Below are positions 42,001-54,000 of a stretch of DNA of 64,000 bases, one piece after another (the stretch's first letter is position 1; the number at the start of each line of letters is the position of its first letter). Where the stretch lies: NCBI GenBank assembly GCA_050950765.1, contig JBMNIF010000002.1:32001-96000 (forward strand), written 5' to 3'. Made by a program: the position numbers. Source of the DNA: Bdellovibrionota bacterium (GTDB lineage Bacteria > Bdellovibrionota_C > UBA2361 > JAAYZI01).

Positions 42001-45000
42001 CGTTACGAGAGTTTTATGTAAAGATGTTGGTTAATGACAAACCTACTAAGCCCTTCTCCGGAACAACTTTAACAATTAAATATCCGGATAATAACTGCGC
42101 TGATGAGTGTGTTAACGCTTCTAGAAGTAAATATGCCGTTCCTCTAAAACAGGCTAAAGATATGATTCTCCGTTGGAGGAAAGGTGACACCTCTTTTATC
42201 AAACCTGAAATGTTCGCAGAGCTTAAGATCGATCTACGCCAACACCTGAGACGGCACGAAAGTGTCTTACAACTTTCAGATCTGGATATTACTGATGAGC
42301 ATTTATTGCAATTAAGTCATACCGCTTTTGATAATGTCAGAGAATTGCTCTTAAGTAATACGCACATTACAGACAAGGGCTTGATTTCGATAGCTAACTT
42401 ACGGAATCTTACTCACCTTTTCCTTGACGGCACTGATATTACTGATGACGGCTTAAAAGCGATCATGATGCTACCACGCTTGCAGATCCTAAATCTTAGT
42501 AGGACAGCGGTTTCAGGTGTTGGGCTTGCAACTCTACGAGGATCCGAGATTAGAAAACTAATCCTACGGGAAACTAGGCTGACCGATAGTGGCTTAGATT
42601 GCCTGACTGAATTTAAACAATTAGCAGAAGTGGCTTTAGAGGGAACTGCTATTTCTGACAAAGCCTTCGATATACTTTGCTCGAACTTACCTAATGTTAA
42701 TATTCACGCCTAAGGGGCAGATCCATTTAGGTTTTTTAAGTTAGACAATAAAAAACGTAACCTGTTACAGGGTGTATAACCACAAAATACATCCTGTACT
42801 CTTTACGTTAAAAATCTGGTGCCACCCTTCTTTTTTGCCGCTTTGGCGGCTTAAGCGATTTGACGCGATAGTTCGGCGAATTTGGTGCCACCCACCAGTT
42901 AAAGTGGGTGTCCTAATTGGGGCAGGGGTCGAAAATTTGGTGCCACCCACCAGTGCTAAAAAACTCTAAAATTGTAATAGCTAATAATATCAGTATGTTA
43001 GCAAAAGTCCTGCATTCGGCGAATTTGGTGCCACCCTTCTTTGTTGCAGGCTGTCGCTGGTGCCACCCACTAGGGACGATTGAACGGGTGGACGAATTTG
43101 GTGCCACCCACCAGTTAAAAGTGGGTGTCCTAATTGGCAGCTAGTAATATCAGTATGCTAGTAAAAGTCCTACATTCGGCGAATTTGGTGCCACCCTTCT
43201 TTTTTGCCGCTTTGACGGCTTTGGTCAAAAATTTGGTGCCACCCTTCAGTTTGAGCGGATCTTAACGGCTTGTCACTGGTGCCACCCACCAGTGTTACAA
43301 GACTCTAAAATCAGGATAGCCAATAATATCAAGATGTTAGCAAAAGCTTAGCATTCGGCGAATTTGGTGCCACCCTTCAGGGACAGCAGGACGGGCTGCA
43401 ACTGCAAAACAGATCGGTTAGGTTTCTACGGAGGTTAAAAATTTGGTGCCACCCTTTAGGGACAATTACCCTCCACCCACTAGGGGCGCTTGAGCGGGCT
43501 GATACAGAAAAGCGAATTAGCCAGATTTTCTACGGAGGTTAAAAATTTGAGCGGGCTACAACTGCAAAACGGATTCGGCTAGGTTTCTACGGAGGTCAAA
43601 ACTCTTAACCTTGCTTTTTTAAGCTCTCTGCAATTTTTAAAATTTGCTGCGTAGCTTTTTTGACATCATTCAACGTGCCGTTTCCGCCGACACAACCACC
43701 TTCACAACACATCACTTCCACCAAATTACCTTCAGGGCAAACTTTATCTTTGGCAAATTTTCTTAACTTTCTAATTGAGTCTTTATTTAATCCGTCAATT
43801 AAGCACGGCTCAAGTTTAACTTCAGGTTTTAAAGCATTTTTTACGGCTGTAGCAACTCCGTTAGTTATACCGAAATTTTTACCATCAACGGAACTAAAAT
43901 CAGGGAAAGCAGATTCTTCACATTCTAGAATTTCAATATGTTCTGCAACAAACCACGCACCTAATTCTTTATAGTTAATAACATAATCAACATTAGGATT
44001 ATCTCTTCCCTCAACACGCTTAGCAGCACACGGACTAACAAAAACTGTTACGCTTTGCGGATGAAGCCGTTTAACTATCTCTGCCGTATAATAGAGTGGT
44101 GTTTGAGTATCAGAAACAAACTCCAACAGATCTGGGATATGTTTATTTAAAAGTTGTCTATACCCTGCACAACACGAAGTCGTCATAAAAGGTTGCCCCT
44201 GATCCATTCTTTCCGCAAACTCAGCAGCTTCATTAGAGATCGTAACATCAGCACCTTGCGCCACTTCATAAACATCTGAAAATCCCAATTTCAGAGCAGC
44301 ACTACGCAGTTGCCCCATTGTTCCCGGCATCTGCCCTGCAATAGAGGGTGCCAACATGGCGATAACTTCTTTGCCTTGCTTAATATCCCTCAATATATCG
44401 ACGATCTGACTTTTTTCATGCACCGCACCAAACGGACAAGCCGCAATACACTTCCCGCAATTTAAACACATTTCAAAATCTATCTTAGCCAAGCCACCTT
44501 CATCTTTAGAAATGGCACCAACTGGACAAGCATCCTCACACGGCACCGTAATTTTAACGATGGCATTATACGGGCAAGCTGCAATACACATCTTACAGTT
44601 TTTACACTTTTCACGATCAATAAAGGCTTTGCCATTCTGCATATAAATTGCATCAAACTTGCAGATACTTTGACACGGTCGCGCCACACACCCTTGACAC
44701 AGATCAGTCACAAAAACTCTATTAGGAGTACAGCCTTTACACGCCGTATCTAAAACCGTCAAAATATTTCTCTCAGGAGCCTCACGCTTCAACGCTTTTT
44801 TAGCCAAGTCACGCAAAGAGGTACTTTCCTCAACCTCATCAATAGCGAAACCTAAACTTGCAACCACCCGATCTCTGAGAATAGCGCGCTCTTTATATGT
44901 GCAGCACCTGTAAGTGACCTCAGATCCCTTTGGACGCATCTCATAAGGGATGATTCTAACATTTTCTGCAAAATCACCAGAATCAAAAGCCTTAATCAAT

Positions 45001-51000: not shown

Positions 51001-54000
51001 TTTCCTGCACCAACTCCAAGTGCAGGCTTGCCTGAAGAATAGGCAGCCTTCACCATGCCAGGACCACCCGTTGCCAAGATTGTTGCGATATCTTTATGTG
51101 ACAAAAGATGATTAGTTAATTCCAAGGACGGCGTATCGATCCAACCGATAATATCAGCTGGTGCACCTGCTTTAACTGCCGCATCTAAAACGATCTTAGC
51201 AGCAGCGATCGTTGATTTTTTTGCACGTGGATGCGGAGAAAAAATTATCGCATTCCTCGTTTTAAGTGAGATTAAAGACTTAAAGATAGCGGTTGATGAC
51301 GGATTTGTCGTCGGTACAATACCGGCGATAATTCCTAACGGTTCCGCCACAATCTTTATCCCGTTAGCTTCATCTTCCTGAATCACACCGCAAGTTTTTG
51401 CATTTTTATGCTTATTGTATACGTACTCAGAGGCAAAATGATTTTTTATCACCTTGTCCTCCAATACCCCCATCCCCGTCTCTTCGACAGCCATCCGCGC
51501 CAATTCAATACGGGCAACATTAGCTGCAATAGCACCTGCCTTAAAAATCCTATCAACTTGATCTTGTGAATATTTAGCGTAGATTTCTTGTGATTTTTTT
51601 ACCCTATTGATTAGATTATCTAACTTTTCAATATTATCGACTAACATACTTGATTCATTATCTATCTCTTTATTTTCTAGTGATTTTTGAGCCATTTTCT
51701 CTTCCTAAAAGCATTTTTAATCGTGATTTATTTCACTATTTAACAATAAACCACCTCCACCCCCTCGTCAAGTCAATTTTGAATAAAATTTGGTGCCACC
51801 CTTCTTTTTTACCGCTTTGACGGCTTAAGCGACTGGATGAATTTGGTGCCACCCACCACTTTAAAGAGATCTGGCTAGGCTTGGATCTGGTGCCACCCTT
51901 CAGGGACGATCGAACGGGCTGTGACTACAAAACGAATCGGTTAGGTTTTCACGAAGGTTAAAAATTGGTGCCACCCTTCTTTTTTGCCGTTTTGACAGCT
52001 TAAGCGACTGGATGAATTTGGTGCCACCCTTCAGGGACGATCGAACGGGCTGCAACTAAAAACGGATCAGTTAGGTTTCTACGGAGGTTAAAAATTTGGT
52101 GCCACCCTTCAGGGACGACTGGACGGGCTGATACTACAAAACGAATCGGTTAGGTTTCTACGGAGGTCAAAAATTTGGTGCCACCCTTCAGTTAAAGGTG
52201 GGTGTCCTAATTGGAAAGCTTCAGGGACGATCGAACGGGCTGCAACTAAAAACTGATCAGCTAGATGTTTACGGGGGTCAAAATTTGGTGCCACCCTTCA
52301 GGGACGACTGGACGGGCTGATACTACAAAACGAATCGGTTAGGTTTCTACGAAGGTCAAAAATTTGGTGCCACCCACCAGTGCTAAAAGACTCTAAAATT
52401 ACGATAGATAATAATATCAAGATGTTAGCAAAAGCTTAGTATTCGGCGAATTTGGTGCCACCCTTCAGGGACGATCGAACGGGCTGTGACTACAAAACGA
52501 ATCGGTTAGGTTTTCACGAAGGTTAAAAATTTGGTGCCACCCTTCAGTAGGGCTTGGATCTGGTGCCACCCTTCAGTAAAAAGTGGGTGTCCTAATTGGT
52601 AGCTAATAATATCAGTATGTTAGTAAAAGTCCTGCATTCGGCAGTTTTGGTGCCACCCACTAGTTAAAGGTGGGTGTCCTAATTGGAAAGCTTCAGGGAC
52701 GATTGAGCGGGCTGCAACTCCTTTAGGGACGGTTTATTCTAAGTGGTATTAAAAACAGTAAAAAAATGGTAGTTATGCACCTAATTGAAGATAAGAGGTG
52801 TGTTTATGGGAATAACTTATAAAGAAGCAAGGATCATCTCGAATGATCGGGTGATTGATAATATTTTTAAAATGACCTGTGAAGATAGCAACTCCGTTAT
52901 TCCAGGGCAGTTCTATATGCTCAAGGCTAAAGGAGAAACTTTTTTAGCACGTCCCATCAGTGTCTACGAAAAAAGTCCTAATTCCGTTACATTTTTATAT
53001 GCCGTAGTTGGTAAGGGCACAGCAGAGTTTTCTGCTCTTAAAGTGGGAGACACCATCAACTTAACTGGTCCCGTAGGTAACGGCTTCGACGTAAAAAGCT
53101 TATGTGGCAAGATCGCCTTAGTTGCGGGTGGAATCGGCATTGCTCCATTCCTTGAAGTTGCAAAGGCTTTACATCAGCACGATTTAGTTACAACTCTTGA
53201 TCTTTATGCTGGCTTTAGAGACACCCCTTATCTTATTTCTGATTTTAAGCCTTATGTTTCTGCAGCACACCTTGCTTCAGAGACGGGGAAGGAAGGATAT
53301 AAAGGGTTTATAACTGATATTTTAAACCCTGCTGACTATGACTGCATCCTTTGTTGTGGACCTACCATAATGATGCAAAAAGTTGTCGCATTATGTCTGG
53401 AAAAGCAGGTTAAAGTTTTCGTTTCAATGGAAAAAAAGATGGCGTGTGGAGTTGGCGCTTGCTTAGGCTGCACCTGTCGAACGCAAGACGGGATAAAAAG
53501 AACGTGTGTAGATGGCCCTGTTTTTGATGGCACCCTTATACAATTCTAAATGAACGGAGAAAATAATAACCATGTTAAAAGTAAATATTAACGGTCTTGA
53601 ATTTAAAAATCCCGTTATTGCGGCATCTGGAACGTTCGGCTTTGGATCTGAATATAACGATTTTTACGATGTCGGAATTTTGGGTGGAATATCTTCAAAA
53701 GGATTAACTATAAACCCTAAAGAGGGGAATGATGGCTGCCGTATTTTTGAAACATCTTCCGGCATGATGAACTCGATCGGACTAACTAATCCAGGTATCG
53801 ACAAATTTATCGAGTGTGAGCTTCCGAAGATGGAAGCTTTTGGCACCAATATAATAGCCAATGTCGGCGGTGGTTCTTTTGAAGATTATGCTGCTGCCAT
53901 AGAAAAACTTAATTACACTTCGATAGATATGATCGAGCTAAATATCTCCTGCCCGAATGTTAAATGTGGCGGCATGGCATACGGCATTAAGGGAGGGATC

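Follow-up and report, generated by a model that had tools for sequence, protein, structure and literature searches.

What is a hydrogen-evolving, fermentative gene cluster doing in an order related to Bdellovibrio, a predator that breathes oxygen? The cluster lies within the window, that is, the whole 64,000-nucleotide stretch analysed, of a metagenome-assembled genome (G000; 2.64 Mb in 5 contigs, 94.02% complete, 1.55% contaminated). Our most likely answer, which we hold with good confidence, is that G000, from an uncultured family of the order, is an obligate anaerobe of anaerobic digesters that makes its ATP by fermentation. Five minus-strand open reading frames (ORFs) match positions 43605-51695 exactly, counted along the window and not along the contig (Table 1), and their Pfam and NCBIfam assignments bear out the grouping of AdhE, Rex and [FeFe] hydrogenases in the first-pass annotation. 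AdhE scores 1398 bits against an NCBIfam cut-off of 951 (NF010378) and Rex 229.8 bits against 130 (NF003994). The start of rex overlaps the stop of adhE by 4 bases, and the PP2C gene overlaps the stop of hydS by the same length.

Table 1. Features of the cluster and its surroundings, in window coordinates.
Feature	Position	Strand	Basis or remark
adhE, bifunctional acetaldehyde-CoA/alcohol dehydrogenase, 876 aa	49065..51695	-	Pfam Aldedh + Fe-ADH + ADH_Fe_C
rex, NADH/NAD+-sensing repressor, 215 aa	48421..49068	-	Pfam Put_DNA-bind_N + CoA_binding
hydS, predicted sensory group C [FeFe] hydrogenase, 573 aa	46475..48196	-	Fer4 + Fe_hyd_lg_C + FeS (PF04060) + PAS_8
PP2C/SpoIIE-family Ser/Thr phosphatase, 387 aa	45315..46478	-	Pfam SpoIIE, E 6.6e-14
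Monomeric group B1 [FeFe] hydrogenase, 482 aa	43605..45053	-	TIGR04105 FeFe_hydrog_B1, 506.4 bits vs 450
Dispersed-repeat array flanking the cluster downstream	42817..43365	.	5 copies of the 14-mer core
Dispersed-repeat array between adhE and divergent dihydroorotate dehydrogenase genes	51791..52561	.	10 core copies
Putative Rex operator core GTGA-N6-TCAC, minus-strand reading TAGTGAAATAAATCACGA	51723..51736	-	28 nt before the adhE ATG
Sigma-70-like promoter match TTGACG-17-TATTGT	51743..51771	-	9/12 matches; just upstream of the Rex operator

The cluster is bracketed by a repeat whose 14-mer core occurs in 518 copies, on all five contigs; in the array by adhE, the repeat units measure 79-189 bp. 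These repeats bear on whether the anaerobe genes were mis-binned from other organisms, or the oxidase genes lie in the missing 6% of the genome, which we consider very improbable. G000 is metagenome-derived, with the completeness and contamination given above, and the short-read contigs of four other runs end at the repeats on both sides, none of them bridging the cluster to its flanks. However, the genome has five contigs only, the repeat that surrounds the cluster is present on every one of them, and one paralog family recurs at the C1 and C2 ends and close to where C3 starts. The fermentative genes are located on contigs of 0.54, 1.25 and 0.71 Mb, which they share with RpoB/RpoC and with Nuo genes inherited within the order; the GC3 of the cluster (0.325-0.407) is typical of the genome (mean 0.347 +/- 0.044); and six other genomes of the order likewise pair a hydrogenase with no COX1.

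Our searches found three PF02906 matches in G000, as the earlier count of three [FeFe] hydrogenases had it, but only two of these enzymes appear catalytic: they are a trimeric HydABC, the group B1 enzyme and a sensory group C protein. HydS matches Fe_hyd_lg_C with 154 bits, and its H-cluster cysteines (C139, C187, C296 and C300) do not vary among 10 orthologs, in which the H-cluster motifs SSACP, GPCIGKK and EALACDGGC, located by alignment to solved hydrogenases, are also unchanged. Its second sphere is altered, with Ala at the position of the proton-relay Cys (CpI C299) and Gly at that of M353; the available text of one study gives Ala and Gly as the most frequent residues at these two positions in sensory hydrogenases (PMC10055695). 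At the C-terminal side, HydS carries an extra 4-Cys cluster (PF04060, 34 bits; C374, C377, C382 and C399 invariant) and a PAS_8 domain (25.5 bits against a cut-off of 21.8). Taking the H-domain, the changed second sphere, the 4-Cys cluster and the PAS domain together, HydS is a predicted group C sensory hydrogenase, and H2 binding with an effect on gene expression is a putative function by analogy. The neighboring PP2C protein has a conserved 160-aa C-terminal alpha/beta domain; a structure model of the protein (pLDDT 82.7) gives SpoIIE, RsbU and RsbX as the best folds, and 8 of 8 orthologs keep the Asp motifs SDGLGSG, FCSDG and DD(I/T)S; no kinase or STAS gene was found within the cluster. 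The group B1 hydrogenase exceeds the curated cut-off, retains the catalytic Cys pair, and shows the motifs TSCCA, SPCAAKR and EVMCCEGGC when aligned to CpI, which suggests an enzyme that is probably ferredoxin-dependent and H2-evolving.

G000 has what a Rex regulon is expected to have: the Rex protein and, upstream of adhE, a candidate inverted-repeat operator before a fermentation gene. We compared this site with what we take to be the full consensus of the Rex operator. Taken alone, such a site is no commoner in the window than chance would give (7 matches, 6.1 expected). It is the conservation between loci that lends it weight: GTGA-N6-TCAC is present no more than 300 bp ahead of adhE in 39 of 79 related loci, as against 11 matches in the other 1.13 Mb of locus sequence. 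Among the 27 loci also encoding Rex, 24 have the core ahead of adhE, and so does the window. Sigma-70-like matches in the region are likewise not above chance (16 found, 20.9 expected).

The hydrogenase set of Ruminococcus albus 7 was reportedly described by Zheng et al. in 2014. As excerpted in later work, it comprises HydABC, a ferredoxin-only HydA2 and a sensor, HydS, and AdhE, HydS, a phosphatase subunit and HydA2 are encoded together in a plasmid cluster (PMC10838669, PMC6776011). The same excerpts give an eight-gene cluster with a ferredoxin-only hydrogenase, AdhE and a sensory hydrogenase with a phosphatase subunit, and a 111-fold fall on H2 removal (PMC6776011). As far as these texts go, G000 resembles R. 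albus 7 in its trio of bifurcating-type, ferredoxin-only and sensory [FeFe] hydrogenases, in the physical linkage of AdhE to HydS, PP2C and the ferredoxin-only hydrogenase, and in the involvement of Rex. It differs in the catalytic partner (group B1 instead of group A1), in having five genes instead of eight, in a cluster without kinase or ferredoxin genes, and in a host from a Bdellovibrio-related order rather than Clostridia. In Thermoanaerobacterium saccharolyticum, where hfsB deletion raised adhE expression and Rex was discussed as the link, hfsB of hfsABCD is a PAS-bearing hydrogenase-like regulator and a HydS homolog; adhE and rex adjoin hydS in G000, whereas the available text does not describe the hfs operon as containing them (PMC5707799). 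In Kiritimatiellia, hydS neighbors genes for an alcohol dehydrogenase and a PP2C phosphatase, an arrangement read as fermentation control (bioRxiv 10.64898/2026.10.06.756941), but this is a different phylum, and the part of the preprint available to us makes no mention of Rex or of a group B hydrogenase alongside hydS. By analogy, the cluster is a putative H2/redox switch of the R. albus type, apparently borrowed: the same gene order occurs in Endomicrobium and other gut or digester genomes, with a conserved Rex operator ahead of adhE.

Elsewhere in the genome, HydABC is encoded by adjoining NuoE-like, NuoF-like and hydrogenase ORFs of 153, 650 and 585 aa (HydC, HydB and HydA; G000:C1:477994-482159), with HydA scoring 839 against a cut-off of 765 (NF040763). 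Its subunit set is that of the bifurcating/confurcating type, for which coupling of NADH and ferredoxin is predicted. The first-pass annotation was also right about HydE, HydF and HydG, each above its NCBIfam cut-off, and about PFOR (TIGR02176, 1847 bits), Rnf (RnfBCDGEA), a V-type ATPase operon and the anaerobic ribonucleotide reductase (NrdD and NrdG); its desulfoferrodoxin exceeds the Pfam cut-off and falls below those of NCBIfam. Acetate kinase was not found in G000, and an NDP-forming acyl-CoA synthetase of 737 aa scores 551, just under the acetate-specific cut-off of 567. By sequence, the gene set is complete from pyruvate to H2, acetate and ethanol.

From gene content, and not from fluxes, we propose the following scheme. 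PFOR would convert pyruvate to acetyl-CoA and reduced ferredoxin; an ADP-forming acetyl-CoA synthetase would turn acetyl-CoA into acetate with formation of ATP, and AdhE would yield ethanol. HydABC could oxidize NADH and reduced ferredoxin jointly to make H2, the group B1 hydrogenase would consume reduced ferredoxin only, and electron flow from ferredoxin to NAD+ through Rnf would build an ion gradient for the V- and F-type ATPases. The five-gene cluster may act as a switch among these electron sinks, on the model proposed for R. albus 7: Rex would occupy the operator, located just past the adhE promoter, and be released as NADH rises, while HydS would sense H2 and pass a signal via its PAS domain to PP2C, the co-translated phosphatase. 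At high H2, AdhE and the ferredoxin-only hydrogenase would be made.

In agreement with the earlier claims, profile searches of G000 gave 0 matches for haem-copper oxidase (PF00115) and bd oxidase (PF01654), both at E<=1, and for 2-oxoacid dehydrogenase E2 (PF00198) at E<=0.01. Aerobic respiration with terminal oxidases is a class feature of the Bdellovibrio-and-like obligate predators, and the two empty oxidase searches place G000 outside it. That the respiratory chain was swapped for a fermentative one is only partly borne out: the fermentative set is present and the oxidases were not found, but nuoCD-E-F, nuoG and nuoHJKLMN are intact (NuoCD, E, F, G, H and J-N being the set searched for) and encode proteins 34-69% identical to those of the aerobic sister family, and the F-type ATPase a subunit is retained, as are hemC/D and hemE in the window. 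These genes indicate an electron chain that uses quinone and haem, for which the final step was not found. G000 could still be a respirer, whose complex I, quinone pool and haem proteins supply electrons to an unrecognised terminal enzyme, anaerobic or micro-oxic, with fermentation as an add-on for anoxic spells; one genome of family f6 (G011) pairs [FeFe] hydrogenases with a bd oxidase. We consider this unlikely. Besides the oxidases, our searches of G000 found no SdhA/FrdA (the sole Succ_DH_flav_C match is a NadB-like protein of 539 aa), no molybdoenzyme reductase (the sole molybdopterin match is the NuoG homolog), no multihaem cytochrome c (no ORF of at least 60 aa has two or more CxxCH motifs) and no [NiFe] hydrogenase. 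In addition, the sister genome G023, which is only 85% complete, gave no NuoH, NuoD or ATP-synt_A match, suggesting that loss is under way in the family. Since complex I, F-type ATPase and haem synthesis are still kept, we place G000 at an intermediate stage. The missing oxidases, the full set from pyruvate to H2, acetate and ethanol, the anaerobe-type accessories and the digester DNA described below favor a strictly anaerobic, H2-evolving fermenter, as first proposed.

G000 had been taken for a lone exception in its order, which it is not. Fe_hyd_lg_C occurs in exactly 7 of 91 order genomes, G000 included, spread over three families, and COX1, present in 83 of these 91, is absent from all 7 by profile search; together with ATP-synt_D in 2 of 91, these re-run counts agree with the earlier ones, given as floors. 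On a tree of RpoB and RpoC, the pair G000 and G023 groups as sister to family f4 within the order, family f1 and the aerobic family f4 are sisters with a support of 100, and the trait requires 3 changes. An AU test with six of the seven hydrogenase-bearing genomes (G005, with a split rpoB, was omitted) rejected a single clade (p 6.2e-5), on a tree that rests on two linked genes and a quick search under LG+G4, with family f3 on a long branch (0.47). Because the three families do not form one clade on this tree, the shift occurred or spread several times, and oxidase loss with hydrogenase gain in at least three families is part of the explanation that we favor with the confidence stated at the outset. 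Literature searches turned up no account of oxidase-free Bdellovibrionales. For magnetotactic Bdellovibrionota from anoxic sediment, which share the broad lineage of G000, the available text proposes anoxic niches and treats true anaerobes of the phylum as previously unknown; those genomes retain oxidases of the cbb3 and bd types as well as a Hox [NiFe] hydrogenase, whereas G000 has neither oxidase and [FeFe] hydrogenases instead (PMC13200544). Myxococcota, a different phylum, are in the accessible text predatory and for the most part aerobic, but include uncultured lineages in anoxic habitats (bioRxiv 10.1101/2021.07.06.451402).

The cluster would have been acquired horizontally from a pool common to anaerobes of guts and digesters, and far enough back for its base composition to have come to match that of the genome. 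Identical order of the five genes was found in 4 of 80 AdhE loci (a Bdellovibrionales genome, an Endomicrobium genome and two others); among the other loci, 1 is rearranged, 2 carry four of the five genes, and contig ends truncate another 3. DNA near-identical to that of G000 is present in metagenomes from anaerobic digesters, biogas plants, bioreactors, wastewater and landfill: 12 rows from 10 studies, possible-source rows excluded, contain at least half of the sampled words, and all 12 are labeled digester, bioreactor, biogas, wastewater, landfill or metagenome. The same search gave no RNA run with the stretch.

The label "predator" for G000 has kinship as its only basis. The organism may instead live with anaerobic protists as their symbiont or parasite, or it may be free-living and scavenge peptides and sugars; to a non-predatory life of either kind we give slightly less than an even chance. 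The window encodes a eukaryote-like WD40 protein (28863-30221) and two VirD4-like proteins with LRR tails (37009-42713), the closest AdhE relatives outside the order belong to host-associated lineages such as Endomicrobia and Gastranaerophilales, and a 4-alpha-glucanotransferase suggests glucan use. On the other hand, the genome size is within the span of the aerobic relatives, IS and repeat elements are many, there are putative Cas9- and Cas12a-like ORFs, judged by their starts, which is uncommon for a confined endosymbiont, and the runs holding G000 DNA are digesters, not animal guts. If it is predatory, which we propose tentatively and with more doubt than belief, G000 and its kin would represent obligately anaerobic predation in the Bdellovibrio-related order: they would hunt bacteria or archaea in methanogenic digesters, live by fermentation and release H2 to methanogens, with the H2 sensor tuning their metabolism to syntrophic neighbors, and the shift would have arisen or spread at least three times via ready-made modules.

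Bdellovibrio-like bacteria are textbook aerobes. Our searches bear out the gene content from which the first-pass annotation read a fermentative anaerobe in G000, the genome under study (2,644,825 bases in 5 contigs; completeness 94.02%, contamination 1.55%). Six-frame family searches of G000 gave no match to COX1 or bd oxidase at E<=1, no 2-oxoacid dehydrogenase E2 core and no molybdopterin oxidoreductase besides the NuoG homolog. ORFs of at least 60 aa with two or more CxxCH motifs were absent, and SdhA/FrdA was not found in G000, the sole Succ_DH_flav_C match being a partial one to a 539-aa NadB-like protein. 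Encoded are PFOR, RnfBCDGEA, AdhE, NrdD and NrdG, desulfoferrodoxin, HydE, HydG and HydF (grouped on contig C3, each exceeding its own cut-off) and a V-type ATPase operon, whose position directly before a DDE transposase gene fits acquisition by transfer. The NDP-forming acyl-CoA synthetase (737 aa) scores 551 bits, just below the acetate-specific cut-off of 567; we prefer this ADP-forming enzyme for acetate formation and abandoned the Pta-Ack route because acetate kinase was found neither in G000 (six-frame) nor in any of the 7 hydrogenase-bearing genomes of the order. Together with HydABC, this gene set supports well the view of G000 as a fermentative anaerobe. As a separate observation, its NrdD scores 366 against a cut-off of 326 with the general anaerobic reductase model and only 103 bits with TIGR02827 (RNR_anaer_Bdell, an NCBI model named after Bdellovibrio).

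Two earlier statements need adjustment. Three Fe_hyd_lg_C proteins are present, as had been counted; the third, on C1, is encoded at the end of a hydC-hydB-hydA set, the products of which are NuoE-like (153 aa), NuoF-like (650 aa) and above the NF040763 cut-off (585 aa). Since HydABC and the group B1 enzyme are catalytic and HydS is a sensor, the "three hydrogenases" are two catalytic enzymes and one sensor, and no [NiFe] hydrogenase was found in G000. The idea that the organism swapped its respiratory chain for a fermentative one holds for the missing oxidases and the fermentation genes, but a clean swap is counted against by what remains: three loci carry intact nuoCD-E-F, nuoG and nuoHJKLMN, arranged as in the aerobic sister genome G008 and 34-69% identical to its genes, an F-type ATPase a subunit is still encoded, and hemC/D and hemE are found within the window.

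Nor is G000 a lone exception. COX1 was detected in 83 of the 91 genomes of the order; the eight without it are G000 and G023 (both family f1), G003-G006 (f3), G011 (f6) and G071, which is 70% complete. Fe_hyd_lg_C occurs in exactly 7 of the 91, namely the COX1-less genomes except G071, in three families. In the sets searched, only G011 retains bd oxidase (1/5), Rnf is confined to f1 (2/5 searched), as is the V-type ATPase (2/91), and NrdD occurs in G000 and in each of the four f3 genomes (5/10 searched). A strong acyl-CoA synthetase match was obtained in all seven hydrogenase-bearing genomes and in 1 of 3 genomes of the aerobic family f4. E2 is absent from G000 and f3 and present in G011 and f4; it is also encoded in G023, though absent from G000 of the same family. 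In G023, which is only 85% complete, no match to NuoH, NuoD or ATP-synt_A (F-type ATPase a subunit) was found. Gene losses inside f1 look mosaic, with the incompleteness of G023 as a caveat. Two f3 genomes, G003 and G006 (92-93% complete), carry [FeFe] hydrogenase genes, yet no HydF/HydG above the cut-offs.

A tree of concatenated RpoB and RpoC was built for 41 genomes under LG+G4 (2888 columns, quick search). Each of the 21 families is represented by one or more genomes, and 5 genomes from the same class serve as outgroup; the other 50 genomes of the order, many of which have split genes, were left out. In this tree f1 and f4 are sisters (SH-aLRT 100), G011 clusters with families f9 and f5 (support 95), and f3 has a long branch of its own. 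The trait requires three changes. Forcing the six tested genomes into one group lowered the log-likelihood of the best tree by 185 units (AU p 6.2e-5). Origin or transfer of the trait on more than one occasion is likely; we stop short of calling it proven, given the simple model and the long f3 branch.

The window corresponds to G000:C2:32001-96000. The cluster, taken as window positions 43605-51695, is filled exactly by five minus-strand ORFs (see the table). Overlaps of 4 bases join adhE to rex and hydS to the PP2C gene, and intergenic gaps of 224 and 261 bases set apart adhE/rex, hydS/PP2C and the group B1 gene. Alignment to solved hydrogenases indicates that the HydS-like protein retains its cluster-binding cysteines (SSACP, GPCIGKK and EALACDGGC, against TSCCP, MPCxxKK and EVMACxGGC in CpI, the numbering reference). 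It has Ala at the position of the proton-relay Cys and Gly at that of M353, both invariant in 10 orthologs; these are the commonest residues there among sensory group C enzymes, according to PMC10055695. The group B1 enzyme retains the Cys pair (TSCCA).

Features of the cluster and other loci discussed (window positions unless a contig is named)
Feature	Position	Strand	Basis
AdhE	49065-51695	-	NF010378, 1398 bits vs cut-off 951 (NCBIfam; Pfam too)
Rex	48421-49068	-	NF003994, 230 bits vs cut-off 130
HydS-like protein, 573 aa	46475-48196	-	Pfam: ferredoxin domain, H-cluster domain, extra 4-Cys motif, PAS domain
SpoIIE/PP2C phosphatase, 387 aa	45315-46478	-	Pfam
Last 160 aa of the phosphatase	45318-45797	-	
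Monomeric group B1 [FeFe] hydrogenase, 482 aa	43605-45053	-	TIGR04105, 506 vs cut-off 450
GTGA-N6-TCAC core	51723-51736		
Repeat array	42817-43365		
Repeat array	51791-52561		
VirD4/TraG-like neighbour, 893 aa	37009-39690		
ORF	39962-40444		
ORF	40425-42713		
V-type ATPase operon	G000:C1:311635-320659		
NrdD	G000:C1:414839-417643		
Long ORF	G000:C2:1221204-1224419		
Long ORF	G000:C2:136131-139907		

The fermentative genes lie on the three large contigs alongside genes typical of the order. We rejected a recent transfer of the cluster because GC and GC3 of its five genes are typical of G000; we read the cluster as part of one genome and as an old acquisition. Arrays of a dispersed non-coding repeat flank it on both sides; the units are 79-189 bp, and a 14-base core occurs 518 times over all five contigs. 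Contigs from four other sequencing runs (X6, X7, X8 and X18) cover the cluster and both flanks but end in the repeat arrays, and none of these short-read contigs bridges cluster to flank. The many joints that skip 9 kb have sides shorter than 30 letters, which lie inside the repeats, and we read them as repeat cross-matches, not excision. Proteins of 1036-1814 aa that share one signal-peptide start lie at or near the end of C1, the end of C2 and the start of C3, and this family is probably behind the assembly breaks there. One base at window 40408 is absent from the contigs of X6, X7 and X8; its absence would fuse two ORFs (window 39962-42713) into one LRR-tailed VirD4/TraG-like protein that closely resembles the 893-aa neighbour, and the difference is either a frameshift in the G000 strain or an assembly error. 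Two long ORFs on C2 have N-termini that may resemble those of Cas9 and Cas12a.

From an AdhE scan of species-representative genomes we kept 80 loci. The best, L007, is from a MAG titled 'uncultured Bdellovibrionales bacterium' (81% identity), followed at 73-79% by Endomicrobia, Gastranaerophilales, rumen Alphaproteobacteria and others; the closest copies of every cluster gene are in f3 (68-81% identity). Four of the 80 loci (L007, L008, L065 from Endomicrobium, and L077) share the order of all five genes, and L047 has them rearranged; four of them occur in L067 and L068, three loci (L013, L051, L063) are cut by contig ends, and Rex follows AdhE in 27/80. The module is thus common to different phyla of gut and digester anaerobes.

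Across roughly its first 230 residues, the whole-protein model of the phosphatase (pLDDT 82.7) matches SpoIIE, RsbU and RsbX. Its last 160 residues, conserved in 8/8 orthologs, form a confident alpha/beta fold (pLDDT 88.6) for which Foldseek gave no PDB match at E<=0.001. The best VIA-align wide hit was to NuoG residues 371-532 (Z 9.8, rmsd 3.2, 118 aligned), the runners-up being similar alpha/beta domains of formate dehydrogenase-type enzymes; since such a Z barely exceeds the background of 7-8 that is usual, we assign the domain to no family, a NuoG-type one included. A full-length prediction of the HydS and PP2C complex with custom alignments scored 0.02 against a mark of 0.32, which weighs neither for nor against binding.

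A GTGA-N6-TCAC core precedes the adhE start by 28 nt, with a promoter-like TTGACG-17-TATTGT just ahead of the core. This core resembles the Rex operator consensus. Matches to the Rex consensus in the window alone were not above chance (7 vs 6.1 expected), and promoter and terminator scans showed no excess over shuffles. Across the AdhE loci, the core occurs within 300 bp upstream of adhE in 39/79 and in 24 of the 27 with Rex, and the remainder of those loci holds 11 core matches in 1.13 Mb. Throughout G000, 13 sites with up to 2 mismatches and 24 core sites revealed no clear regulon besides adhE, and no core site precedes hydC, rnfB or PFOR.

The cluster is of a kind already known from parallels in several reports. 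The R. albus cluster comprises a ferredoxin-only hydrogenase, AdhE and a sensory hydrogenase with a phosphatase subunit; its expression falls 111-fold in co-culture with an H2 consumer, and the authors proposed direct H2 sensing (PMC6776011). Ruminococcus albus 7 has the same trio as G000, two catalytic hydrogenases and one sensor (PMC10838669). Deletion of hfsB, a HydS homolog, raises adhE expression (PMC5707799), and in Kiritimatiellia hydS, PP2C and alcohol dehydrogenase are arranged together (bioRxiv 10.64898/2026.10.06.756941). What differs in G000 is that the partner belongs to group B1; in gut bacteria, the main H2 producers are reported to be enzymes of group B (PMC12578642).

Near-identical DNA was found in 20 run rows from 15 studies. 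With 5 possible-source rows set aside, at least half of the sampled words recur in 12 rows from 10 studies, whose labels are anaerobic digester, bioreactor, biogas fermenter, bioreactor sludge, wastewater, landfill or plain metagenome. No RNA run with the cluster is among those listed. The cluster is covered by contigs of four of these runs; in the listed pieces X6 and X7 show no differences, and the contigs of X18 differ by ~2%. The literature covered, which excludes subscription journals and supplementary tables, yielded no account of oxidase-free or fermentative members of the order. A 2026 paper describes true anaerobes of the phylum as unknown until then; its MAGs, unlike G000, retain cbb3 and bd oxidases (PMC13200544).

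Taken singly, the metabolic parts are ordinary. G000 is one of seven COX1-less, [FeFe]-hydrogenase genomes in three families and is widespread in anaerobic digesters, which makes methanogenic systems a place to look for predatory or formerly predatory bacteria. G011 with its bd oxidase, G000 with complex I and G023, in which complex I was not found, offer a natural stepwise series from respirer to fermenter, and the compact Rex/HydS/PP2C module suits testing how H2 sensing sets the choice between ethanol and H2.
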